From an uncultured Methanolobus sp. (GTDB lineage: Archaea > Halobacteriota > Methanosarcinia > Methanosarcinales > Methanosarcinaceae): a DNA stretch of 64,000 bases. Of the stretch, positions 972 through 55,816 are shown piece by piece. The notes beneath the pieces are model-generated. The model saw only the letters and a list, made by a program, of their open reading frames with translations. It was not told where the DNA came from and did no database searches. The stretch covers positions 96,001 through 160,000 of the forward strand of contig OY776215.1 in NCBI GenBank assembly GCA_963675495.1, read 5' to 3'. Numbering within the stretch: position 1 is the stretch's first letter; every line of letters starts with the position of its first letter. A program made the translations under genes and the position numbers.

Positions 972-2453
972 ATGAAAATACTGATAGCTACAGGCAGATT
1001 TGCTGAGCGGACCGTAAGAAAGGCTGTGGGTGACCTTGCTGATGTGCTTATTGCTGATACCAAGGTAGCCGCATTCATTACTCCTCGTAAACTAATTGCA
1101 GCAATATCAGAAAATATTCTAAATTTTGATTACGACCTGATTTTCATTCCAGGTCTTGTGTCCGGTAATTTTGCAAAGGCTGAAAATGAACTTGGATGCA
1201 AGATACGCCTTGGTCCCAAACATGCCTATGATCTGGGTTTTGTGCTTCCATTTGCAGAAAACATGGAGTTTTCCAGAGATGTACCTGCCTGTGAACTGCT
1301 CGCAGATGTCAGGAGGGAGATGGCTCTTGACAAAGTGCAGGAACTCGAAGATGCTGCGTTTGTCCCGATTTTACTCGGAAATTTGAAAATAGGTGGCAAT
1401 TCCCGTATGAAGGTAATGGCTGAGGTAGTTGATGCCACAGGCCTGGATCCTGAAGTTCTTGCCTTGAAGGTGCGTAGTTTTGAGATGAAAGGTGCTGATA
1501 TAATAGACCTTGGTGCTTCCCTGCATGCAACTACTAAGGACATAAGACTTGCAATTGAAATAGCCAGGGAAAACACCAGTCTGCCTTTTAGTATTGACAC
1601 CCTTGATCCAGCACTTATCAGGGAAGCCCTGCATTGTGGTATTGATCTTGTGCTCAGTCTTGATAGCAATAATATTGGTGACATTGGTGCTGACATTGCT
1701 ATGGCAGGTGTGCCTGCTGTGGTCATACCTGATCAAGGAGAGGGCTTTGAAAGCCTTGCCAGCAATATAGACTTGGCGAGTTCAGTGGGTGTACAAAATC
1801 TCATTGCTGATCCGGTCCTTGATCCGATAGGCCACGGAATCGGCGGTTCAATTATCAGGTATATGGATTTCCATAAACAAAACCCTGATATGCCTATTTT
1901 CTTTGGTGTTGGCAACGTAACAGAACTTATTGATGCTGACTCAACAGGTGTCAATGCAACATTATGTGGTATAGGTGCAGACGTGGGCGCAAGTATCCTC
2001 TTCACTCCTGAGTACAGCAACAAGACCCAGGGTTCTATCACTGAACTGAAGAAAGCATCCCAGATGATGATGCTCTCAAAGGAGCGTCAGAGTTCTCCAA
2101 AGGACCTCGGTATTGACCTGATCGAAATAAAAGAGAAAAGAAGGCGTACAGATTCCATTCTTCCGGAAAACTTTGTCAGGGCAGAAAAGCACAAGATGTG
2201 GACTCTTGACCCAAAAGGCAGTATCGTTATAAGCATAATTCCAGATATCCACGGGAAAAAAGAAGGTTGTATCCTTGCTGAACATGATAATACATCCATT
2301 GTTGGCAATACAGCAAGAGAGGTCATGGACACAATTCTTAAAATGGAACTTGTTTCAAGAATGGAACATGCAGCCTATCTGGGACAGGAACTCAAAAAAG
2401 CTGAACTTGCCCTGAAAATGGGAAGGAGTTACTCTCAGGATGATGCTTTTTAG
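972..2453 (+). CDS. Dihydropteroate synthase-like protein (pterin-binding barrel, C-terminal DUF4346-like domain)
   Basis: GADIIDLG, SIDT, ADPVLDP, GNVTELIDADS; C-terminal HAAYLGQELKKAE. Confidence 0.85.
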   Translation: MKILIATGRFAERTVRKAVGDLADVLIADTKVAAFITPRKLIAAISENILNFDYDLIFIPGLVSGNFAKAENELGCKIRLGPKHAYDLGFVLPFAENMEFSRDVPACELLADVRREMALDKVQELEDAAFVPILLGNLKIGGNSRMKVMAEVVDATGLDPEVLALKVRSFEMKGADIIDLGASLHATTKDIRLAIEIARENTSLPFSIDTLDPALIREALHCGIDLVLSLDSNNIGDIGADIAMAGVPAVVIPDQGEGFESLASNIDLASSVGVQNLIADPVLDPIGHGIGGSIIRYMDFHKQNPDMPIFFGVGNVTELIDADSTGVNATLCGIGADVGASILFTPEYSNKTQGSITELKKASQMMMLSKERQSSPKDLGIDLIEIKEKRRRTDSILPENFVRAEKHKMWTLDPKGSIVISIIPDIHGKKEGCILAEHDNTSIVGNTAREVMDTILKMELVSRMEHAAYLGQELKKAELALKMGRSYSQDDAF

Positions 2454-2578
2454 GAACAGTATTATTCTTTTTTTACAGACAAACGCCGAATGGAATGGTT
2501 GGATGTGCCTTTTTCGAATTGCTTGTCCAATATAGCTAGGCAAGTTTATATAAATGTAATATTATATTGTAATTAGCT

Positions 2579-4051
2579 ATGTCTTCTAAATACAAGATTC
2601 TGATTGTAGATGATGAACCATTAAATGTTGAATTACTTTCAGTTTATCTTAGGGATACATATGATATTTTAACTGCTTACAATGGTAAGGATGCACTTGA
2701 AAAAGTTCAAAATGAGAGCCCAGATTTGATTCTTCTTGATGTAATGATGCCAAACATGAATGGTTATGATGTTTGCCGTACTATCCGCGAAGAATTCAAG
2801 ATGGATTTCATACCAATAGTAATGGTTACAGCTTTGACTGGTAAGGCTGATCATCAGAAAGGAATCGATGCAGGTGCAGATGAATTTTTAAAGAAGCCCG
2901 TAGGCAAGTTCGAACTTGACAAAAAGATTTCCTCTCTTCTGAGAATAAAGAAGATGCATGATGATCTTCTTACAGAAAAGAACACAGCTTATCATTATCT
3001 TGATTATGTTGGAGTACTTGTTGTAGTACTTGATCTTGATTACAGGATTCTGCGCATTAATAAAACAGGATCTGATCTGCTGGGTTACAGTTCTGAAAAA
3101 TTGATAGATCGTGAATGGCTAGGGTCTTTTGTTCCTATTGGTTCGGTAAATGATGTGCGTAATCATTATGATGGCCTTGTATCAGGAACAGTAAAACCAT
3201 ATAGGCATCGTGAATCCCCCGTTATCATAAGCACTGGTGAAGAGCGACTTTTCAGATGGTATGATTCTCCATTGCTTGACAATGCAGGTAACACTATAGC
3301 CATTTTGATATCAGGGGAAGATATTACTGAAATAAAAACGGCTGAAAAACAACTTAAAGAGTACGCTGTGCAGCTGGAACGTTCAAACGATCTAAAAGAG
3401 CTTTTTACAGATATTATGCGACATGATCTTGTAAACCCTCTAAGTCTTATTAAGTCTTTTACGGAATTACTCTCTGAAATTGAGTCAGATGAGTATAAAA
3501 AAGAGCTGCTTGGAAATATTAATGAAGCCACTGGAAAACTAATTTCAATGGTAGATGGTGCAGCACATCTGGCAAAGCTGGAATCTGTGGATGATATAAG
3601 TTTTGTGAAAATCGATATTTGCTCAGTAATGGCCGATGTGATCAATGATTTTACGACTCAGATCCGCAACAAGAATATGGATGTTACTATTCAAGTAGAA
3701 AATGAGTGTTATGCTGTTGCAAATCCTATGATAGAACGAGTATTCGTTAACCTGTTATCTAATTCAATCAAATATAGTCCCCCGGGCAGCACCATAGTAA
3801 TAGATGTTGTTGATATGATGGATAAATGGAAGATAAGCTTTACAGATCAGGGTGATGGAATACCTGATGCCAGTAAATCATCTGTTTTTGAACGTTTTAA
3901 ACGTTTGCATAAAGAGGATATACGTGGTACGGGGATTGGTCTGGCCATCGTCAAAAAAATTATGGATTTGCACAAGGGACACATAGCCGTTGATGATAAC
4001 CCTGAGGGCAAGGGTAGTATCTTCTGGCTGACTCTTAAAAAAGACATCTAA
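2579..4051 (+). CDS. Hybrid sensor: REC-PAS-histidine kinase
   Basis: ILIVDD, LLDVMMP, PAS ending GEDITE, H-box RHDLVNPL, N-box NLLSNSIKY, G-boxes DQGDGI and GTGIGL. Confidence 0.93.
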   Translation: MSSKYKILIVDDEPLNVELLSVYLRDTYDILTAYNGKDALEKVQNESPDLILLDVMMPNMNGYDVCRTIREEFKMDFIPIVMVTALTGKADHQKGIDAGADEFLKKPVGKFELDKKISSLLRIKKMHDDLLTEKNTAYHYLDYVGVLVVVLDLDYRILRINKTGSDLLGYSSEKLIDREWLGSFVPIGSVNDVRNHYDGLVSGTVKPYRHRESPVIISTGEERLFRWYDSPLLDNAGNTIAILISGEDITEIKTAEKQLKEYAVQLERSNDLKELFTDIMRHDLVNPLSLIKSFTELLSEIESDEYKKELLGNINEATGKLISMVDGAAHLAKLESVDDISFVKIDICSVMADVINDFTTQIRNKNMDVTIQVENECYAVANPMIERVFVNLLSNSIKYSPPGSTIVIDVVDMMDKWKISFTDQGDGIPDASKSSVFERFKRLHKEDIRGTGIGLAIVKKIMDLHKGHIAVDDNPEGKGSIFWLTLKKDI

Positions 4052-4640
4052 TTTTTCTTTTTAAGGAATGTTCCTACTGTTTTACCTAATGTTTTTAGTC
4101 CAGATGTAGTTCAATTCAATTTCCATAGCTGCTTGTTCATCTTACTGGCATATTTCTTGTATCATGCAGACAATGTAAACTACTGAACAAAACAAAAGAA
4201 GATAGATGCTAAGCAAGGGCACCAATGTCCTGATATGGCACCCAGGGCGCACTCGATGTGCGTTTTTGAGAAGCGATTTTTTTTGGGGTTACTTATGAGG
4301 GTGTCTTTTACCCAGTCCATACTAGTATTATCTCTTATTTAGTTGTGAGCAATGGAATCTATGCAGGCTTACATTGAAATTTCCTGTTATTTTCTCTAAT
4401 GTGCGTCCGTGCCACCTTTACAGCTTTGGGTTTTTCATTGGTGGTTTTTGTGTTCCTGTGAATATTATTGCTTTTTGTCCGGTAATCTAAAGTGAGGTTG
4501 TATATGTGCTGTTTAGACTTATAACATTTGAACTCATTTAATAATATTGTAGAGTCATGTGAATTGGTCAGTCAATCAACCGAAACTTTATATTCTTGAC
4601 TGCCCAATGTCCACTCGATCAACAGGTTAAGAGTGATAAC

Positions 4641-5603
4641 GTGATAAGTGTTAACGAAAAGGGATTAGCAATAATCGATGAGATGCTTGACTGGGAAGAA
4701 GAACTGAAAGTCCAGTCTACAGAGCTTGAGAACGGTGCTACTATAATTGACTGTGGTGTGAATGTAGAAGGTGGATACGATGCTGGAATGTATCTGTCCC
4801 GTCTTTGTCTTGCAGATCTTGCAGACATAAGCTACACCAAGTTCGATCTGAATGGCCTTCCAGTACCTGCTATTCAGGTAGCTACCGATAATCCCACCAT
4901 TGCATGCATGGGATCTCAGTACGCAGGCTGGAGAATTGCAGTCGGCAAATATTTTGGTATGGGTTCAGGTCCTGCAAGGGCACTCGGACTTAAGCCAAAG
5001 GAACTGTACGAAGAGATAGGTTACAAGGATGATTCTGAATTTGCAGTCCTTGTTATGGAATCAAGTGAATTACCGAATGAAGAAGTTGTCGAATACATTG
5101 CAAAACACTGCAGTGTCGATACTGAGAACATTTACATTGCTGTTGCACCTACAGCTTCAATTGCAGGTTGCGTCCAGATCTCAGCACGTGTAGTCGAGAC
5201 AGGTATCCACAAGCTTGAATCGATCGGATACGACATCAACACTATCAAGAGCGGTTTCGGTGTTGCTCCAATTGCACCAGTTGTCGGTGACGATACAAAA
5301 TGTATGGGCTCCACAAATGACTGTATCATCTACTGTGGTGAGACATACTACACAGTTGAGTACGGAGATGCAGAGAAATTGGCAGAGTTTGTCAAGAAAG
5401 CTCCATCCACAACCTCAAGGGACTTTGGTAAGCCATTCTACACAACCTTCAAGGAAGCTGAATTTGACTTCTTCAAGGTCGATGCAGGTATGTTTGCACC
5501 AGCCAAGATAACAGTGAATGATACCAAGAGCAAGAAATCCTTTACAAGTGGAAGGATCAATCCAGGAATTCTTCTGGAATCATTTGGCGTAAAAGAAGTC
5601 TAA
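4641..5603 (+). CDS. mch: Methenyltetrahydromethanopterin cyclohydrolase
   Basis: GTG start giving MISVNE; [39 protein letters not shown]. Confidence 0.96.
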
Positions 5604-5676
5604 TTCTCTAACAGGCTTAAATTATACCGATACAACCTTAAAGGTTGTATTGCTTTTTTTCTTTCGGAGACAGTCA

Positions 5677-6150
5677 ATGGATATAATAAGTACTTCAAAA
5701 GGTATTGGTGGCCAGCTTACGGAATTCAGGAAAATAGTGAAAGAATCCAAGCGGATCACTTTTATCGGTACTGTCGGTTTCTGCACACCATTTGCGGAAT
5801 TGATGGCATTTGTCCTCAGGGGCACAGGTAAGGAGGTAGTATTCCTCCCAAATTTGCAATCTGATGAAGCACGTATGATAGTTTCATCTTCACAGGGAAT
5901 GCAACTTGGTGACATAACAGACCCTTCTGCAGACACGGTTGTCCTGCTTGGCGGACTTGCAATGCCAAAGATAGGCGTTGAACCTGAAAAGATGAAGGAG
6001 CTTGTAGATGGTCTATTGCAGGAAGCTGAAAAGAAACTTGTTATAGGTGTTTGTTTCCAGTCAATGTTCATGAATCAGAAATGGCCGGAACTAATTGATT
6101 TTAATTATATCATAGATGCAGACCTAACAAATGAGGTTAAAAAAGTATAA
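5677..6150 (+). CDS. DUF2124 family methanogen protein
   Basis: GFCTPFAEL, VLLGGLAMP, GVCFQSMF; ATG after GGAGA. Confidence 0.8.
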   Translation: MDIISTSKGIGGQLTEFRKIVKESKRITFIGTVGFCTPFAELMAFVLRGTGKEVVFLPNLQSDEARMIVSSSQGMQLGDITDPSADTVVLLGGLAMPKIGVEPEKMKELVDGLLQEAEKKLVIGVCFQSMFMNQKWPELIDFNYIIDADLTNEVKKV

Positions 6151-6203
6151 TCCAATTTGTTCAAAATTGATTATTGCTTTTGCTTATCTCTCCCATTTTC
6201 GAT

Positions 6204-7217
6204 TCAATTTATCCGGGCATCTACTACCACATGCCAGATGCCGGGAGAATATTTCTTGATCTTCCTGCACTCCAGTATTTCCACCTTTCTGCCAGATTTT
6301 GATGCTACATCCTTGATACGCTTAATTGGCCTGGAAAATATCAGGCTTTCCGGTGTAGTTTCATGGTAATGCAGGATTCCACCACTTTTTTTCAGGGCTT
6401 TGATGCCATGTTCAAGATAATGGTGTGTGGTACCCACATATCCCATAAGCACTCTGTCAGCGATCCCCTCAGGAGTAAGTTCGGCACAATCACCATTCCT
6501 TGCTTCAACTATGTCTTCCACATGGTTCAGGACTATGTTTTCCCGAAGGTATGCACAGGACTGCGGATTTATCTCAATAGCGATGATCCTTGCAGGTTTT
6601 GCGTGAACTGCCATAGGAATGGTAAAGTATCCTATCCCTGCAAACATATCAACTATGGTTTCATTAGTCCCGATACTGCTCATGAGTGATTTTTCATGCA
6701 GGTTTCCTTTTGAGAACATCACTTTTGTGACATCGAGTTTGAATAAACATCCGTTTTCCTTATTGATGGTTTCAGTGTTGTCGCCCAGAAGTATTTCTCT
6801 TTCAGGAAGTCTGAACTGACCATTTATTCCAAGGTCACGTACCACAGTATTGCATGATGGGTACATCTTGATCAATGACTCTGCAATCCTTTCTTTTAAA
6901 TGGTCAATAGAGGGGTCAATAGTAACAACAATTATGTTCCCAAGAATTTGCCATCCCGAAGGCAACATACTCAGTTCTGTTTCTGTAATGCTTTCACCGA
7001 GTATTTCTTCAAGTGAGCGCCATTTGTTGTAGAAAAGAGCATCTTCCTGTTCATATGTATCAAATCCCTTTATATCCTCAGTAACAGGTATTTCAAGAAA
7101 GCGTTCTTCGTCATCAATGACCTTTATCTTTCTTTCAAGGTCAAGCTTACCATTTTCTATTATACTAAGCCTTACGGTTTCTGCTTCTTTTACCGGTACA
7201 CGAATAACTTTCATCAT
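6204..7217 (-). CDS. Trm5/Taw2 (Met-10+) family tRNA wyosine-pathway SAM-dependent transferase
   Basis: LDVTKVMFSKGN, DMFAGIGYF, EINP, ADRVLMGY, IKKYSPG. Confidence 0.88.
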   Translation of the reverse strand: MMKVIRVPVKEAETVRLSIIENGKLDLERKIKVIDDEERFLEIPVTEDIKGFDTYEQEDALFYNKWRSLEEILGESITETELSMLPSGWQILGNIIVVTIDPSIDHLKERIAESLIKMYPSCNTVVRDLGINGQFRLPEREILLGDNTETINKENGCLFKLDVTKVMFSKGNLHEKSLMSSIGTNETIVDMFAGIGYFTIPMAVHAKPARIIAIEINPQSCAYLRENIVLNHVEDIVEARNGDCAELTPEGIADRVLMGYVGTTHHYLEHGIKALKKSGGILHYHETTPESLIFSRPIKRIKDVASKSGRKVEILECRKIKKYSPGIWHVVVDARIN

Positions 7218-7338
7218 AATGACCTGAGTTCTGATTTTTTAATCTTTATTAAATGATATAGCAGGTTTTAAGTATTGATACCAACTCATTCGCTTAACAG
7301 CGAACATTTAAATACATTGTTGGTCTATTGGATACTGC

Positions 7339-8079
7339 ATGAACAACGGAGATAACACTGCCATTTTTTCCACTGATATTGGGTTTATTGCTCTTAATGG
7401 TTCTGTAAAGATTAAAATACTTGACTTTCTCAAAGGTGGCTGCAGATCATTTGATGAAATAGTCCAGTACACAGGAAAAGCTAAGTCCACAATTTCCGTT
7501 CATCTTAACGACCTGAAATCCCAGAATCTACTCGAAGAAGCTATTGATGCAAATGATAAAAGGAAGAAAGTCTACTTTTTGAAATGTCAGTACGTTGCAT
7601 GTTCTCAGGAACCTGGGGTGAAAAATTATTGTGAGATGCTTGGAGTTATAGGCTCTCCTGATATGAATTCATTTGGTTGTCTGAAATGTTTGTTCCATGC
7701 TGTGCAGTATGGTTTCCGTGCCTACGGGGTAAATTGTGATCCCATCATGAGAAAAATAGGGAACGATGTAGGAGCCAGTCTTTCCAGAAATTTTGTTTCA
7801 AATGAAAAGGAACAGATATTGAACGAAATGATGGCTTTCTGGGAAGAGCACGACATCGGAAATTTCAAAGTCCTGAGCAACGATCCCATAAAAATAGCTG
7901 TTCATAACTTTTTTGATTGCCGTTCAATTCCAATTGAAGAAAAGACCTTATGCTCTTTTGCACAAGGTGTTTTTGAAGGTGTCTTCAATGAGAAATTAGG
8001 CATTGAATGTGTAATGCAGATACTTGGCAAATGCGATAAGAATTGTGAATCCTGTCATTTCCAGATGGTTCTGCTTTAA
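7339..8079 (+). CDS. ArsR-type wHTH plus Cys-rich V4R domain regulator (MsvR-like)
   Basis: KAKSTISVHL helix; C-terminal FDC, LCSFAQG and C-x3-C-x2-C. Confidence 0.8.
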   Translation: MNNGDNTAIFSTDIGFIALNGSVKIKILDFLKGGCRSFDEIVQYTGKAKSTISVHLNDLKSQNLLEEAIDANDKRKKVYFLKCQYVACSQEPGVKNYCEMLGVIGSPDMNSFGCLKCLFHAVQYGFRAYGVNCDPIMRKIGNDVGASLSRNFVSNEKEQILNEMMAFWEEHDIGNFKVLSNDPIKIAVHNFFDCRSIPIEEKTLCSFAQGVFEGVFNEKLGIECVMQILGKCDKNCESCHFQMVLL

Positions 8080-8762
8080 TTTGATGCTTTTATAACTCCA
8101 AGCTCGCCTTTTACAAATCTGCCAATCGCAGCAACAATTCCCGGTCCGTCACTCGTTTCCCTGCAAGTTATCATGTGTTCCATGAGTCCCAGTCTTTCTA
8201 TTCCGTAGATATCCCTTGCGTGACCGGTTCTTTTGACAGCTGCTTTAAGTTCAGAGCGTGTAACTGCATTGGCAATCACTCTGTCCTGCTCTGATTTTTT
8301 CCAGCTCCACCATAGGTCCACCTGTAATTTTGTAAAAGCACCCACGTTTTCTACTTCATCAGTTATCTCTATTTTTACAGGTAAACGTTTGATCAGTCCA
8401 AAACGAGTTGCTATCTGTTTTGCAGTTCCAACTCCAAGAGGTGTGAGGTTCTTTTTTGGGATGCTTACAAGAGTTCCTACGTCAACGATTATTTCCTTTT
8501 CCCGTATTTGATGTATTACGCCGGAATACACTTCATTCTTTTTAAGTTCTGTGACAGGCGTACCAAATTTACTGACGAGGAAATTGGAAACGAATTCGCT
8601 GTCCTCTCCGGTAATGTCAACCTTAAGCCAGTTATCTTCCGATATTGAAAATTCTGCTGAAGCATCAAGCTCTTTTAATTCATTGCCTACAAACATTTCT
8701 GCTGAATGGAATGCTCTTTCACGGTTGCCATATATTTTTAATAATAGATTTACAGTGACCAT
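8076..8762 (-). CDS. DUF2110 family protein
   Basis: GHARDIYGIERLGLMEH and DGPGIVAAIG motifs. Confidence 0.75.
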   Translation of the reverse strand: MVTVNLLLKIYGNRERAFHSAEMFVGNELKELDASAEFSISEDNWLKVDITGEDSEFVSNFLVSKFGTPVTELKKNEVYSGVIHQIREKEIIVDVGTLVSIPKKNLTPLGVGTAKQIATRFGLIKRLPVKIEITDEVENVGAFTKLQVDLWWSWKKSEQDRVIANAVTRSELKAAVKRTGHARDIYGIERLGLMEHMITCRETSDGPGIVAAIGRFVKGELGVIKASN

Positions 8763-8778
8763 TTTATTGTCCTTTCAA

Positions 8779-9360
8779 TTATTGCTTCATTACCAGGTCA
8801 AAGATATTCTGTATCTCGTTGAGTTTATCCAGACCTTCGTCATCGATAAGGTCTTCATTCTCTTCTATTGAATTTAAAAGTAACTGGATATCCCGGCTAA
8901 AAGGACCAATTTTCATCTTCATTTCCTGAGGCTCTGAATTCTTATTGAAAAGATTATCATACGTAGTTACTATTTGCTCGTGTAACCTGCTAATGTGTTC
9001 CAGCGTTGATTTTTTCTCATTCTCTGAGGTTTCTGTGTTCTGTGCAGTGGCTTCATCAGCCTCTTTCTCTTCTACACTATCTGGTGATTCTCCTTCAATT
9101 GCCATTATCAGGTTTTTAAGAGCATCAACTACGTTGTACCCATGTTCAGTAAGTTCCACATATTTCACACGTCCTTCAATTGTAAATTGTAAGAGACCGT
9201 GTTCTTCCATTTTTGAAAGTATTTTGGTTGTGTGGGCAAAAGTTGAATTTATTTCTTTTGTGATAACTGAAGCGTACGTTTTCTGAAGGGACCATATAGC
9301 CAGAAGGGCAAGGGTTGGTTTCTCCTGTAAAAAAAGCTGCTCAGCATATTCTTTTGTCAT
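8779..9360 (-). CDS. Winged-helix (MarR-like) transcriptional regulator
   Basis: STFAHTTKILSKME, GRVKYVELTEHG wing. Confidence 0.75.
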   Translation of the reverse strand: MTKEYAEQLFLQEKPTLALLAIWSLQKTYASVITKEINSTFAHTTKILSKMEEHGLLQFTIEGRVKYVELTEHGYNVVDALKNLIMAIEGESPDSVEEKEADEATAQNTETSENEKKSTLEHISRLHEQIVTTYDNLFNKNSEPQEMKMKIGPFSRDIQLLLNSIEENEDLIDDEGLDKLNEIQNIFDLVMKQ

Positions 9361-9469
9361 GAAAGTTCCCCTTTATGTATACATTTTGAACCCTTGATTG
9401 CAAAAACATCATCATACCTTACATTATATATTATAATATATATCAATAAAATAAAAATAGTATATAATT

Positions 9470-10657
9470 CTATCGGATGTCAGCTATAATAAGTTCAATG
9501 TCCGATATATTTGCATCCGTTTTAAAGGATGTACCGCTAAAATGTGTCCTTGAAGCTAAAAATCCCTGGTTTTGAAGTTCCTGAATGACCGTTTCGATCC
9601 GTGAAGCAGAAACTCCTATTTTTTTGCATATAAGGTGCTGGTCATAGAACATAGGTATGTCCAGTTCATCTCTGCATAATTCAAGCATTTTGACAGCGAA
9701 CTGTTTGGTGCCGCAGTTGCGTGTTTCCAGTTCATTGATGGTTTCACTGCAAAAATCCGGACTATGCAATTTGCCGAGCCACAGAGGACCTGCAATCATG
9801 TTATTTCCACCACAATAGCTACATTTGTTATCAACATGAACTGCAAGACCATGAATACTTTCCCGATTTCCACATTGCGGACAATGTGCGATAAAACCCA
9901 TGTTCTTCAGCATTGTATCAGCCCGCTTTGCTCCTTTTTTTATTTCAAGGTATGTGCGCACGTAATGCCTTGTAGCATGGGTCAGGAGTGGATTCATAGC
10001 TTTATCGTGGAGTGATAATTCCCTTGCTATTTTTCCAAGTAGTATACGCACTCCCATTTCACTGTGGTATTCGTTATTGAAAGGTATTGCAGCATATTTT
10101 CGTATGCCTGAATTTAAATGTGCACCACAAAGAGGTGCAGTATCCGTTGCTGTCACTTCGAGCAGATTGATCACAGAGCGGGCTGCTGCAGCCAGGAAAG
10201 GTCCGGGAGTGCCGAATGGATCAAGGTCAACTATATTGAAATGCTTCTCATGAAGAAGTACATTCGCATTCTTGTGGCTTGCAACGGTATTATGGCCGAT
10301 TTCCAGATTATCTATGTTCTGTTGTATAAGGGTGCAGGCTTCTTCACTCCAGTCATTAAGGGTTGTGTGGATACCTATCTCATTGGATATCCTGAGTCCG
10401 CGAATACCAGAGGCTGAAAGAGCATCCACATAAGTGATGACCTTCTCCGGGTCAGGTTCCATTCTCTTAACAAAAGCAGATGTTGCAGCTACGGAGATAT
10501 CACGATTCATCTCCATGACCGGATTATAAAAAACAGGGGCTGCAGATGGTGCAAAATTAGCTCCTTCCGCAGGGATGGGAACCAGGATATCAGTATCTCC
10601 TTCCTTTACAGATCTTACTTTCATCCGGTTCCCTGAAGATTCATTCTTATTTAACAA
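9470..10657 (-). CDS. trm1: tRNA (guanine26-N2)-dimethyltransferase
   Basis: [33 protein letters not shown], zinc ribbon, GPLWLG. Confidence 0.95.
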
Positions 10658-30363: not shown

Positions 30364-30588
30364 TTGTTCCCTAGTAAGAAAGTCCAGAAATTAGTTGGAT
30401 CTAAAGTCCAGGTAGAGATGAAAGGTGACCTTCACCTGCTCGAAGGAACTTTAAAAAGTGCAGATGATTATATGAACCTGCATATGGTGGATACTGTAGA
30501 GATAGCAGACGGCGAGCGCCTGCGTTCCCTTGGTTCTGTCGTATTGCGTGGAAATAATATTATTCTTGTTGTTCCGATGGAAGAATAA
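30364..30588 (+). CDS. Sm-like (Lsm) RNA-binding protein
   Basis: GTLKSADDYMNL (Sm1), VVLRGNNI (Sm2); TTG start. Confidence 0.93.
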   Translation: MFPSKKVQKLVGSKVQVEMKGDLHLLEGTLKSADDYMNLHMVDTVEIADGERLRSLGSVVLRGNNIILVVPMEE

Positions 30589-30607
30589 ACACCCAGTGGA
30601 AACTAAC

Positions 30608-30958
30608 ATGAGTATCGAAGAAGATGCATTGAATATTATTCGAGACAGTAAAGAAGGCGTTTTCCAGAATGAACTCTGGAAAATGCTTAATATCGACAGC
30701 CGTAAATGTTCCCGAGTTGTATCGAAGCTTTTGGATGATGAAGTAATCACCCGGGAGCAAGCTGTTTCTAACGGAGCCAGGACTTACCTTCTTAAGGTTA
30801 AGGAAGAAGAGATTCCTTGTTTTGATCTCCTGTTATCTGGGGATATGTTTTCACCCTGTGCAGGTTGCAGGGATGCATGTCAGCCAGAGTCCTGTGAAAA
30901 GCTCACTGCGTGGGTTGCAAATCTCAATGACAGTGAGAAAGCAGAGGAAATGTGTTGA
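30608..30958 (+). CDS. TFE-beta / RNA polymerase III C34-like protein (wHTH plus Cys/FeS motif)
   Basis: GVFQNELWK-x5-SRKCSRVV wHTH; C-terminal PCAGC-x3-CQP-x2-C; next to Lsm. Confidence 0.72.
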   Translation: MSIEEDALNIIRDSKEGVFQNELWKMLNIDSRKCSRVVSKLLDDEVITREQAVSNGARTYLLKVKEEEIPCFDLLLSGDMFSPCAGCRDACQPESCEKLTAWVANLNDSEKAEEMC

Positions 30959-48999: not shown

Positions 49000-49169
49000 G
49001 CTTCTGAACTCATTTTTTTGCATTAGACTATTTGAGGAAGATGCTGGATTCAGAAGGGTTTGAGAACATCGAATGTTTTGATGATGTGCTGCCGGATATT
49101 GATATGTGGAATGGGAGAATGTGTTGTTTTGTAAAGCTAGGAAGGTTATTGGGGAAATGGATGCCTGAG
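49000..49169 (+). pseudogene. Degenerate copy of the 3' end of the SAM methyltransferase at 53493-53662
   Basis: Shared TTTGAGGAAGATGCTGGA, ACATCGAATGTTTTGATGATGT, ATTGATATGTGGAA, GAATGTGTTGTTTTGTA. Confidence 0.85.
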
Positions 49170-49356
49170 TGTGTCTGTTTCTTGTTTTTTCAGACTAAAT
49201 AAGGATCACTGGCTATGAAACAGACAATAATCATGATTTCTCTGACATTCATGGAAGCAAACAAGGCATACCGATCCCTATATTATAATATGTATAGATT
49301 ATATCTACGTTAAATTTTTAACAGAATATATATATCATTACTTTGATAGGCAATAT

Positions 49357-52805: not shown

Positions 52806-53653
52806 ATGAATTTAACAGATATTATTGAATTTACACAGAAGCCACAGCTATACGTTGAAGGAAATGCAGTTATGTGGACAGATGCCCACATTTCAGAACA
52901 GTTGTTGAACATCCATCTTAACCCGGATATCGATCTGGCAAGCCGGAGAAAATCAAGTATTGAGAGTACGGTTGACTGGATTCTCAATTCGGTGAAAAAA
53001 AAACAGATGACCATACTAGACCTCGGATGCGGCCCGGCCTGTATTGTGAGATGATGGCTGAAAAAGGTCATAGGATCACAGGCATAGATTTCTCAAAGAA
53101 TTCCATCGAGTATGCCAGAAAGGAAGCCACAAAGAAAAATCTGGACATTGAGTATGTGAACCAGAACTACCTCGAACTCAACGAGGAGAACAGGTGTGAC
53201 CTTGTGATAATGGTCTTCACCGATTTCGGTGTCCTGAAGCCACATGAAAGAGATATACTCATCAGGAACGTCCAGAGGGCTTTAAAGCCGGGGGGAAACT
53301 TTATCTTTGATGTCCTGAGCGACAGAAATCTTGACAAGAAAGTTTCGGACAAGACATGGGAGATGGAAGAGAGCGGTTTCTGGAAGGACAGTCCATATCT
53401 GTTACTCTCAGATTCTTTCCTGTATTCAGATGAGAAGCTAATACTGTATCAAAATATAGTGATGGATGAATCCGGTATTTTCGATGTCTATCGCTTCTGG
53501 ACTCATTTCTTTGTGTTTGAGGATTTGAGGAAGATGCTGGAACCAGAAGGCTTTGAGGACATCGAATGTTTTGATGATGTATTGCCGGAGATTGATATGT
53601 GGAACGGGGGGAATGTGTTGTTTTGTAGGGCGAGGAAGGTTGTTGGGAGATGA
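52806..53653 (+). pseudogene. Class I SAM-dependent methyltransferase split by a 1-nt frameshift in motif I
   Basis: ILDLGCGP in the first ORF continues as GLYCE, GIDFS, LKPGG in the second; GGCCCGGCCTG lacks one G. Confidence 0.85.
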
Positions 53654-53715
53654 ATGCTCGAGGGCATCTATTTATCATTTCTTTTAGAACAAACAACTTC
53701 TGAAAATTCCAAATG

Positions 53716-53919
53716 TCACAGTTTGTTTTCTTTGATTTTCAAGAGATAAGTCCTGGCTCCGTTAGAAACAGCTTGCTCCCGGATGATAAGTTCATCATCC
53801 AAAAGCTTCGATACAACTCGGGAGCATTTACGACTGTCTATATCAAGCAGTTTTCATAGTTCATTCTGGAAAATACCTTCTTTACTATCTCGAATAATAT
53901 TAAATGCGTCTTCCTTGAT
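53716..53919 (-). repeat. Inverted diverged copy of the 5' part of the TFE-beta-like gene (~30614-30805)
   Basis: Identical runs such as TCCCGAGTTGTATCGAAGCTTTTGGATGATGAA and CCGGGAGCAAGCTGTTTCTAACGGAGCCAGGACTTA. Confidence 0.92.
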
Positions 53920-55667
53920 GGCATCACTTACTTCTTCTGATTTTGGAATTTTGCTAATATTGGATAGTGGCAATTTAACTATTGGTGAAACAATGAGCAA
54001 TTTGTCATAGTCTAACTCATCTAAAGAATATATTTTAGCATTTTCTGAATTGAAAGATTCGTCTATGTTAAAACATCCGTACTTTAAAAGTTCAATTAAT
54101 TTTGTTTGTTCTGACCAATATGTCAACTTAGAATTATCTTTTATTCCTTCTATTGTAGACTGTTGATTTAAGGCGATTTTTTGTAAATAATGGAACAATG
54201 CTTTGTTTGAAGCAAGATGAGTTATTAATAATGGCCATTTTATACTTATAGCAATAAACTTGGCAAGTTTTTTTGTATTCCATCTTTTTTCAATTGTCGC
54301 TTTTTTATTATAAACAAATAAGTTTGTTTCCATTGATATATACAATTTAAGCCGGAGTAAATTAATGAACTGTTTTAAACGTCGTGGGTTATTGTCTAAA
54401 GCATCAGAAACCATACTAATTAATTCTGTGAATGAGTTATCTTCTTCTCCAGTTTCTATTTTTTCACAAGCTAATAAATCTTTAAACTCTTCGTCTAGTA
54501 TTCTATTAGAACTTTTATTAATTTCCTCATAATCATCTTCATCCAATTGATTTGCTTTTGGACTTGTTTTTTCATCAGGTAAACAACTATTAAGTTTATC
54601 AAGAAATTCTGTTATGCTTTTTTCATCAGGTTGCGGTACTAAAAATGGGATTTGAATAAATTTCTCTATAAATTCGAAACCATATTCTAAACCTTTTAAC
54701 GAAAGATTGCTGGTATTTGCAGATTCGGTTATAGAATTATTTGGATAAAGGTATGGTAGCAATTTTTCATTTTTAGCTGCAATACCTGCAGCTATTTTAG
54801 TTCTATCCATTCCTATTATGAAAATTAGATTTGGACTATCATCTATTAACATGTTTATTGCACGCATTAATTCAACAGCTTTTGGAATGTCACAACGATC
54901 CAAATCATCTATAAAAATGTAAACTCTTGAATTATCAGAATAAGCAGATACTATGTTAGCAAAATCATGATGAAGTTTTTGAATAAACTCTGTATGGATT
55001 TCATAATCAGGCGATGTTAAACATTTATTTAGATCAACTTCCATAGATGTATCAAAAAAGTTCCGAATAGTATCACTGAATGAAATAATAATTCCCAAAG
55101 ATGCAATGATACCTATTAAAGTCGTAAATAACGTTTTATCACTTAATGCATCACTAATTGCTTTAACTAAATTTTGAATAGAGAATGAATATTGTGATAA
55201 GAACAGAATTATCACAATGATGATACTAGCTAAAGAAAGTAAAAAAATTGAAACTCTTATTATTTCGAAAATGAATTTTTTAAGTTAAGTCTTAATCGCA
55301 GCAATCTAAAATACCCTTTTAAACGTCCTTTGTTTGATGTTTTTTCGGACAGTTGTGATATCAAATCTGAAATGAAGGTTGCCCAGAGTGCTTCTGCTTT
55401 ATCATGTCTCCATGCATTAAAATGTACAATTTTTCCATTTTTATCTTCAATTTTATCTTCTAGTTGTAGAATAAAAGAAGATTTGCCACTTCCCCATTCT
55501 CCTTCAATGGACATAGTAACGGGTGGATTTGTATTTTTATTTGTAAGGAAATCTACGATTGCCTTAACATACGGCTTGAAACCTAGTAGATCTTCTCTTG
55601 TAGCTAAATCATTAATATTCGAAGGCGATATTTTGGTAGTATTTAATTTATTCAACAATTTCACCAT
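53716..55667 (-). pseudogene. KAP-family P-loop NTPase with TM insert and C-terminal wHTH; frameshift near 55265 and TGA at 53854-53856
   Basis: GEWGSGKS, FNAW, IDDLDRC, FIEKFIQIPF, NPRRLKQFIN; AT-rich. Confidence 0.85.
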
Positions 55668-55816
55668 GATGATTGATTATAAATTCAGCCTAACTATTTT
55701 TAAAATGCAATTCTCTTTTAAAAGTCTGTCGAAATTAAAAAGGATTAAATTGACTGGGTGATAGTCACATTCCTATACAATACCCTTAAATACCACTTCC
55801 ACCCTCCAATTAAATA

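Follow-up and report, generated by a model that had tools for sequence, protein, structure and literature searches.

A 64,000-nt stretch of the genome of Methanolobus sp. GCA_963675495.1 (contig OY776215.1; 2.87 Mb in one contig) was analysed; this whole stretch is referred to here as the window, and its positions serve as coordinates throughout. On its minus strand, at 53716-55667, lies a gene for a KAP-family nucleoside triphosphatase (NTPase) that runs in frame into a copy of the winged helix (WH) of a conserved host gene, the putative tfeB at 30608-30958 on the plus strand (hereafter the core gene). The fusion gene is now broken at two points. It is carried, together with its upstream region, by a single-gene insert of 2.1 kb (53689-55775, a feature without strand) between a methyltransferase gene and an acetolactate synthase gene.

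The KAP coding region is divided between two frames. The N-terminal fragment (55260-55667, minus strand) comprises 135 codons and a stop, contains the Walker A motif GEWGSGKSS and matches positions 1-86 of the Pfam profile KAP_NTPase (PF07693, length 293; 6.6e-17). The C-terminal frame (53857-55284, minus strand) matches profile positions 96-287 (5.4e-18), and the two scores, 62.1 and 65.7 bits, compare with a cut-off of 20. The ORF (open reading frame) within this second frame, 55215-53854, encodes 453 aa, and the frame is open upstream to 55284, giving 476 codons. Alignment showed the N-terminal fragment to be collinear with full-length homologs, and the C-terminal frame holds, in order, two hydrophobic segments, the Walker B motif IFIDDLDRC, NNPRRLKQFIN, the end motif LDYDKLLIVSP, a linker of ~25 residues and the WH copy up to its residue 26. 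Once joined, the pieces also supply FNAWRHDK and KFIAISIKWPLL, alongside Walker A, both hydrophobic segments, IFIDDLDRC, NNPRRLKQFIN and LDYDKLLIVSP; the hydrophobic runs VSIFLLSLASIIIVIILFL and LFTTLIGIIASLGIIISF, between Walker A and B, align by inspection with the hydrophobic insert of the homologs. The N-terminal frame stops at the TAA at 55262-55260, the C-terminal frame opens past the TAA at 55287-55285, and the homologs are unbroken there. The only overlap of the two frames is the frameshift interval 55263-55284 (minus strand), which includes an A6 run at 55276-55281. Since the two pieces are collinear and make up a full KAP gene between them, one shift of 1 nt accounts for the break in a gene that is otherwise intact.

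The second lesion is a TGA at 53854-53856 (minus strand), placed at the conserved Trp (NELWK) of the winged helix, where the core gene has TGG. About 25 residues past the end motif the frame enters IKEDAFNIIRDSKEGIFQNEL-TGA-KLLDIDSRKCSRVVSKLLDDELIIREQAVSNGARTYLLKIKENKL-TGA, and if the TGA at 53856-53854 is read as X the frame remains open to the TGA at 53718-53716. Reading this codon as selenocysteine (Sec) or Trp was ruled out because the genome has neither a tRNA-Sec nor a tRNA with a TCA anticodon (50 tRNAs, one tRNA-Pyl), and the TGA is therefore a stop. With no intact reading frame across the frameshift (55284-55263) and the TGA (53856-53854), the gene in this strain is a young pseudogene with two inactivating lesions and all core motifs otherwise intact.

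Both lesions were checked against Logan contigs from four sequencing runs of one study that contain the stretch, three of which come from one sample. In those three runs an 8381-nt contig spans 53794-55900 with 0 differences and 0 gaps, which rules out an assembly artefact or a homopolymer sequencing error over that interval, while a 4946-nt contig spans 53500-53776 and a 77-nt copy-specific unitig bridges 53747-53823. The fourth run, from a second sample of the same study, contains short pieces only. Variant letters at 53824-53875 were traced to the core gene's contig aligned with the copy (12 differences). The contigs reproduce the locus, and the read-derived data thus contain the KAP/WH junction as well as the TGA and the frameshift; the runs may be the assembly's own material, and they test assembly error, not strain variation. 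A sequence-only reading of this stretch had proposed that the KAP gene continues in frame into a WH copy lacking the cysteine-rich (Cys) domain and that the gene is inactivated, and had raised the possibility that reads might not span the junction. The proposed architecture is confirmed by the ORFs, by Pfam and by 90% identity over 176 nt, the junction is reproduced by read-derived contigs, and to the inactivating stop can be added the frameshift near the A6 run, which that reading had not reported.

The captured winged helix with its stop occupies 53716-53931 (minus strand), matches Pfam B-block_TFIIIC (7.2e-7) and ends NKL-TGA (53718-53716). DNA homology between copy and core gene extends over ~53721-53919, equivalent to core codons 3-66, so that the winged helix is covered completely and the Cys-rich C-terminal domain not at all. 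A genome search showed that the organism has exactly two copies of the WH, 90% identical over 176 nt. When the genus was searched at the DNA level, 26 of 36 genomes gave a match; the other 25 each matched in one place, the core gene (best G003, 91%), and a second WH copy was found in none of the 35 other genus genomes.

Over 63 codons, the copy differs from its own core gene by 15 synonymous and 9 non-synonymous changes (synonymous divergence, dS, 0.51; non-synonymous divergence, dN, 0.064; ratio 0.13), and from the G003 core gene by 15 and 7 (ratio 0.10), with a dS between these two core genes of only 0.136. The amino acid changes in the copy are L>F, V>I, M>L, N>D, V>L, T>I and V>I, an E>K at the junction and the W>stop, and both helix 3 (SRKCSRVVSKLL) and the wing (SNGARTYLL) are the same in copy and core. 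Changes from G/C to A/T make up 15 of the 25 copy-core differences. A maximum likelihood tree places the copy outside the G000+G003+G143 clade (54% support), on a branch ~4x longer than that of its own core gene. A binomial test against neutrality gave p = 3e-5 when all synonymous changes were assigned to the copy branch, 6e-4 with the tree's proportion and 0.05 with half; these selection estimates are pairwise and tree distances only, and branch-specific dN/dS is approximate. Judged by its substitutions, the copy evolved like a protein, with a dN/dS of about 0.1, and its divergence is not neutral. This agrees with the sequence-only reading, in which the differences were described as mostly synonymous or conservative and the copy as kept as protein for a time, a dN/dS estimate being suggested as a check. 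That reading had also named a fusion unique to this assembly and diverging neutrally as the outcome that would speak against it; uniqueness to this genome was indeed found, but neutral divergence was not.

Comparison with other genus genomes showed that left-flank homology stops at ~53680-53696 and right-flank homology starts at ~55774-55785. Both flanks are conserved, with the methyltransferase on the left and the acetolactate synthase on the right, and ~53689-55775 is missing from all 35 other genus genomes. No inverted or direct repeats were found at the insert borders. The WH copy is placed within the insert, away from its edges, so KAP and WH most likely came in as one unit. The G+C content of the KAP part is 27.7% (18% at third codon positions), that of the WH copy 37.6% (33%), that of the core WH 41.3% and that of the genome 40.5%. 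An origin by attachment-site duplication was ruled out, given that the two WH copies are mutually inverted and 23 kb apart and that the insert has no flanking repeats. A defence-island hotspot was likewise unsupported by the corresponding intergenic slot of three relatives (G003, G070 and G033), which contains a protein of unknown function, a metallo-beta-lactamase, a CAAX protease, an RsgA GTPase and a subtilase.

The S-adenosylmethionine (SAM)-dependent methyltransferase gene beside the insert (52806-53653, plus strand) is itself split, in the assembly, into two ORFs (52806-53054 and 53027-53653) by a 1-nt shift within its DLGCGPG motif (ggcccggcc near 53030-53040). Part of its 3' end (53493-53696) is duplicated 4.5 kb upstream, at 49000-49202 (plus strand; 81% identical), and a read-derived contig carries the same two methyltransferase-end copies, 4.3 kb apart. 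The frameshift and the 3'-end duplicate indicate a region prone to rearrangement. Such a setting would suit a non-functional recombination scar, in which a tfeB fragment was joined by chance to the KAP 3' end to give a chimera that never worked and is now decaying. Consistent with a scar, the gene carries two breaks, the fusion occurs in this genome alone (0/35 for a second WH copy), no intact ortholog was found, and a chance junction would be in frame one time in three. However, the copy has clean domain boundaries and ends in a stop 5 codons past the last aligned residue, the WH sits exactly in the module slot of its KAP subfamily and inside the insert, the substitutions are mostly synonymous, all KAP motifs are intact and independent intact fusions of the same two partners exist, as described below. 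We regard a scar as unlikely.

The slot in question was defined by alignment with full-length homologs, which share an end motif, L..L..KLLQ(V/I)SP, followed by varied modules: FGE-sulfatase-like (L005, L007), zinc ribbon (P0204), helical (P0155), a generic winged helix-turn-helix (wHTH; P0159) or an unrelated domain (G115). The window WH occupies this slot, ~25 residues of linker past the end motif. Relatives at 40-45% identity in two other genera have 800-900 aa and carry an FGE-sulfatase-like domain after the shared end motif. Within the genus, a strong KAP match was found only in G115 among the 34 other genomes of the family sample (4.9e-63, 54% identity). The G115 gene (L014, G115:C2:2192311-2195856) is broken by an IS66-like transposase, its halves lie on opposite strands and its C-terminal domain is different; it is a further dead member of the gene family. 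In a set of 5.8 billion proteins, 467 homologs at E<=1e-20 were recovered among 7999 scored, the best at 46% identity, and among the 120 of these 467 that were listed, extra domains include FGE-sulfatase, GUN4, TIR, CheY, LRR, WD40, SCP2, S-layer and AraC-type helix-turn-helix (HTH).

PADLOC returned weak matches to QatA, PDC-S20 and PifA, and the NCBIfam model for QatA (NF041923) scored 56.6 and 51.9 bits vs a cut-off of 600; the neighbours of the gene are the methyltransferase and the acetolactate synthase, and no QatBCD genes are adjacent. Walker A and B, the hydrophobic segments between them and the Pfam match on both fragments are features shared with QatA (of QatABCD) and PifA (of the F plasmid), but the window gene is no QatA ortholog; its subfamily has swappable ends, and the gene is a pseudogene here. 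The KAP proteins with a C-terminal FGE-sulfatase (SUMF1/CLec) module in Methanosarcina and Microcystis (P0178, P0194; L005, L007) share 40-45% NTPase identity and the end motif with it; their module has the ligand-binding CLec fold, in contrast to the 64-codon winged helix of the window gene, which shows 87-91% DNA identity to a housekeeping-type host gene. In the available text of 10.1101/2023.09.22.558884, the FGE/CLec ends of STAND and KAP NTPases are proposed to be sensors. Such swappable-end anatomy is that of NTPase-centred conflict systems, and we infer a possible immune role from family resemblance and modularity.

A search for intact orthologs of the C-terminal fusion, using query residues 415-499 against proteins of 275-875 aa, found none: the five hits among 416 candidates were the window's own ORF and four unrelated long proteins. 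Two KAP NTPases, P0042 and P0031, were present among the long WH matches listed, with Pfam in agreement for both. P0042 (727 aa) is intact: residues 1-65 form its WH, and the complete KAP domain that comes next shares 38% identity with that of the window across 394 aa (E 6e-78). The WH of P0042 reaches 83% identity, across 63 residues, with the 115-aa tfeB-like gene of genus g29 (G245, G248), as against 45-56% with the Methanolobus genes. Genus g29 belongs to another family of the same order, and its tfeB-like gene also lies behind a Sm-like gene. The KAP part of P0042 is nearest to that of a g29 genome, G220 (57-62%), whose own KAP protein is without a WH. P0042 thus took tfeB codons 1-64, without the Cys domain and at its N-terminus, and since its WH matches the tfeB of a different genus, the capture was independent of that in the window. 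In P0031 (690 aa), two WHs at the N-terminus precede a KAP domain (32% identical, E 9e-47); the pair matches a 200-aa tandem-WH protein, P0013 (74% and 62%), and derives from that kind of protein. Intact fusions of KAP and wHTH, which the sequence-only reading had suggested looking for, therefore exist, but P0042 and P0031 come from other lineages and have an N-terminal WH, and no intact C-terminal ortholog was found.

In a third protein, P0159 (673 aa, intact; KAP 43% identical), the C-terminal slot used by the window gene holds a generic wHTH (Pfam DUF7343) whose hhalign comparison with the tfeB-like profile gave a weak match (73% probability at 24% identity). Along with the N-terminal AraC-type HTH of P0161 and a core WH that is MarR-like by profile and fold, this is what would be expected if the WH were a generic nucleic-acid-binding or output module whose tfeB origin is incidental, for instance one that senses incoming DNA at the membrane, autoregulates, or makes the protein a membrane-tethered, NTPase-switched regulator like STAND+HTH regulators. 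It is harder to reconcile with two independent captures that both took only the tfeB-like WH of the host lineage (codons 3-66 and 1-64) and not other wHTHs, or with a third family of WH-ending proteins, one member of which is casposon-borne. We consider a generic module doubtful, though conceivable.

This third family comprises, among the matches listed, 12 zinc-ribbon/coiled-coil proteins that end in the WH and are without the Cys domain (P0002, P0004-6, P0022, P0032, P0037, P0045, P0073, P0081, P0091 and P0152). P0004, named by its source as a Methanolobus bombayensis protein, is identically encoded in a genome of the same genus, G139, where its gene comes last in an 8.5-kb element that has 30-nt inverted repeats at its ends (93% complementary) and carries Cas1 and a family-B polymerase (PolB). 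The element (L049, G139:C1:432000-450000, positions 1487-10005) encodes a DUF2971 protein, Cas1, small ORFs, the family-B polymerase and P0004, and the inverted repeats, Cas1 and PolB mark it as casposon-like. Of the other three P0004-type loci, that of G103 lies 6 kb from a tyrosine integrase, and those of G133 and G049 have none of the hallmarks of an element within 3.8 kb. The C-terminal HTHs of casposon Cas1 and PolB were considered as tfeB-like WHs and rejected, having no similarity to the WH profile. The available text of a 2014 casposon paper mentions conserved HTH proteins for family-2 casposons and, for a single casposon, a KAP ATPase (PMC4046053). P0004 resembles these family-2 HTH proteins (Krupovic et al. 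2014, PMC4046053) in ending in a wHTH and being the last gene of a Cas1/PolB element, and it may be one of the two conserved proteins published there.

These elements raise the possibility that the window gene is mobile-element cargo, that is, a leftover fragment of a casposon or other element gene that hooks into or disturbs host transcription initiation, or excludes competitors. The same WH end in the element-borne P0004 and the low G+C content of the KAP part (27.7% vs 40.5% for the genome) agree with such a source. Nevertheless, the 2.1-kb insert is one gene only, with no flanking inverted or direct repeats and none of the casposon combination of terminal inverted repeats, Cas1 and PolB, and just one of the four P0004-type loci examined is clearly in a mobile element, which makes cargo a distant prospect.

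The core gene, which is of the type from which the copy was taken, encodes 116 aa (30608-30958, plus strand) with a winged helix and a C-terminal PC-x2-C-x3-C-x4-C, and lies directly downstream of a Sm-like gene (30364-30588). The Sm-like (LSm)-tfeB order is common to Methanolobus and genus g29 of another family (window 30364-30958; L065 1270-1839), and suggests that the pair is a stable two-gene arrangement. With P0004 as query (C-terminal WH), 142 of 151 family genomes gave a match, including 111 of the 115 high-quality ones, and in nearly all matched genomes the sole match was the core WH place, within an open frame of 110-160 aa. A HMMER scan of 1.84 billion representatives with a 68-aa WH query gave 166 matches at E<=0.001; 102 of the 150 matches listed are <=170 aa, and the 35 short members that were aligned share the WH and PC-x2-C...C...C. 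The spacing C-x2-C-x5-C-x10-C is found in P0101 and P0102, the latter from Sulfolobales metagenome-assembled genomes according to its source, and phmmer showed the core gene to be homologous to ~128-aa Sulfolobales proteins with this same spacing. Excerpts of PMC4495717 give C92, C95, C101 and C112 as the iron-sulphur (FeS) ligands of Sulfolobus TFE-beta, and state that its WH is dispensable for TFE-alpha binding and its FeS domain essential. Most euryarchaeal genomes have an hRPC39-like gene and divergent tfeB homologs occur in several euryarchaeal orders, according to the accessible portions of PMC4495717 and PMC5861453.

Pfam assigns the core WH to B-block_TFIIIC and to MarR-type WHs. In the AlphaFold model, residues 1-60 form an H-H-H-E-E layout with a predicted local distance difference test (pLDDT) score of 94-98, and the Cys domain is poorly modelled (52-59). 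The four Cys are conserved across the genus, with a spacing (PC-x2-C-x3-C-x4-C) unlike the published C-x2-C-x5-C-x10-C. An attempt to confirm TFE-beta identity through solved structures failed, as phmmer, a 35-sequence profile and Foldseek mainly returned MarR-type regulators, with the RPC39 WH 2dk5 at Foldseek rank 27. Like TFE-beta/RPC39 (Blombach et al. 2015, PMC4495717; Haloferax tfeB, PMC5861453), the core gene combines a WH with four Cys and is near-universal and mostly single-copy in the family; it differs in its shorter Cys spacing, and the fused copy is without the FeS domain that, in the text available of PMC4495717, is essential for TFE-alpha binding. On these sequence features, the label 'TFE-beta-like' is reasonable but unproven.

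Further architectures were observed around the same WH. Genus g12 of the family has a tfeB-like WH in open frames of 342-580 aa, an extended putative TFE-beta, and P0015 (332 aa) has a long Lys/Pro-rich N-terminal extension ahead of WH and Cys domain. Two to five tandem TFE-beta-like WHs occur in P0007, P0008, P0010-P0014, P0021, P0024, P0027, P0029, P0039, P0050 and P0140, with five matched WH stretches in P0007 (696 aa). P0151 (721 aa) carries a TFE-beta-like WH mid-protein and a C-terminal Dual-OB domain (DuOB, PF22557), possibly a conflict-system domain.

We propose that the KAP-WH protein was formerly a working NTPase with a mimic of the TFE-beta WH as its recognition or docking module, a reading that we hold at about even chances. 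The gene would be a single-gene cassette, gained horizontally, for a membrane-inserted KAP P-loop NTPase of a highly modular, conflict-type subfamily, with its variable C-terminal slot filled by the WH of a TFE-beta-like basal transcription factor of the Methanolobus lineage. By mimicking the WH of the host factor, the module would lend the NTPase the binding specificity of that domain. As a bait or sensor, it would be specific for a protein, of a virus or a mobile element, whose normal partner is TFE-beta; as a docking or effector module, it would be specific for the promoter DNA or pre-initiation complex site taken by the WH. The bait or sensor option, which the sequence-only reading had also proposed, is somewhat favoured, and in either case the NTPase switch at the membrane would be linked to binding. 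The clean, domain-exact, in-frame copy, its position in the slot, the protein-like substitutions, arrival as one cassette and the independent intact capture together suggest that the fusion worked until recently, and that the tfeB WH was taken twice, from among many wHTH regulators, points to mimicry of that particular domain. The pairing of KAP and WH was probably functional and not an accident, and the WH may plausibly have served as a decoy. The broader proposal that Methanosarcinales KAP NTPases repeatedly integrate their own host's TFE-beta WH, as a decoy for virus or casposon proteins that hijack transcription initiation, is a speculative extension that we consider unlikely.

Several observations weigh against this mimic. 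The C-terminal KAP-WH type of the window was found only in its own genome, P0042 was alone among 33 candidates in a search for further N-terminal fusions of its kind, and a KAP match starting before P0042 residue 52 was found in 0 of 392 class genomes; each fusion is a singleton, and short-lived accidents would look alike. The low dN/dS may have built up while the WH was still part of a core tfeB in an unsampled donor species, and because the copy falls outside the core-gene clade with 54% support, its history as a fusion is inseparable from its history as a core gene. By fold the WH is MarR-like, neither structure nor profile searches pick out TFE-beta or RPC39 in particular, and the unrelated wHTH in the same slot of P0159 fits a plain DNA-binding module. 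Finally, the corresponding intergenic slot is without a recognisable defence gene in the three relatives (G003, G070 and G033), and a virus or element factor that targets TFE-beta is not known and was not found in the literature searched.

The closest parallel to the proposed decoy is the integrated decoy, or integrated domain, of plant NLRs, such as RRS1-WRKY. As in those receptors, an NTPase chassis has a variable end and carries a domain copied from a putative host transcription factor: compared with the core genes of G000 and G003, the window WH is 90-91% identical over 176 nt of DNA, and that of P0042 is 83% identical in amino acids to the g29 core gene. Integration at either terminus and recurrent, independent capture of the same host domain are also shared, the WH being C-terminal in the window and N-terminal, from a different genus, in P0042. 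The systems differ in that the immune role of the KAP protein is inferred only, that no TFE-beta-targeting effector is known, that there is no paired helper gene and that the window copy is dead. In bacteria, the integrated-decoy idea was put forward for bNACHT11 as a hypothesis and, in the part of the report available, without a traceable host domain (PMC11702601). The literature searched contained no description of a KAP NTPase fused to a TFE-beta-type WH, nor of a prokaryotic integrated decoy with a traceable host source.

Immune NTPases with swappable sensors are well known, and to our knowledge the source of the sensor domain is rarely traceable. Here the end module can be traced, at ~90% DNA identity, to a conserved, putative host transcription-initiation factor. 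Even if the fusion were a scar, it would still record the module slot of a defence-type NTPase accepting host DNA. If it is a mimic, it would provide a concrete, testable case of an integrated decoy outside plants and a way to approach what the TFE-beta winged helix does in euryarchaea, which is poorly understood, with a hint that archaeal viruses or casposons act on transcription initiation via TFE-beta. Should the broader decoy proposal hold, the fusion would be the first case in prokaryotes of an integrated decoy traced base by base to its host source, TFE-beta would be a target in archaeal host-parasite conflict, and the WH-ending casposon proteins would represent the opposing side.

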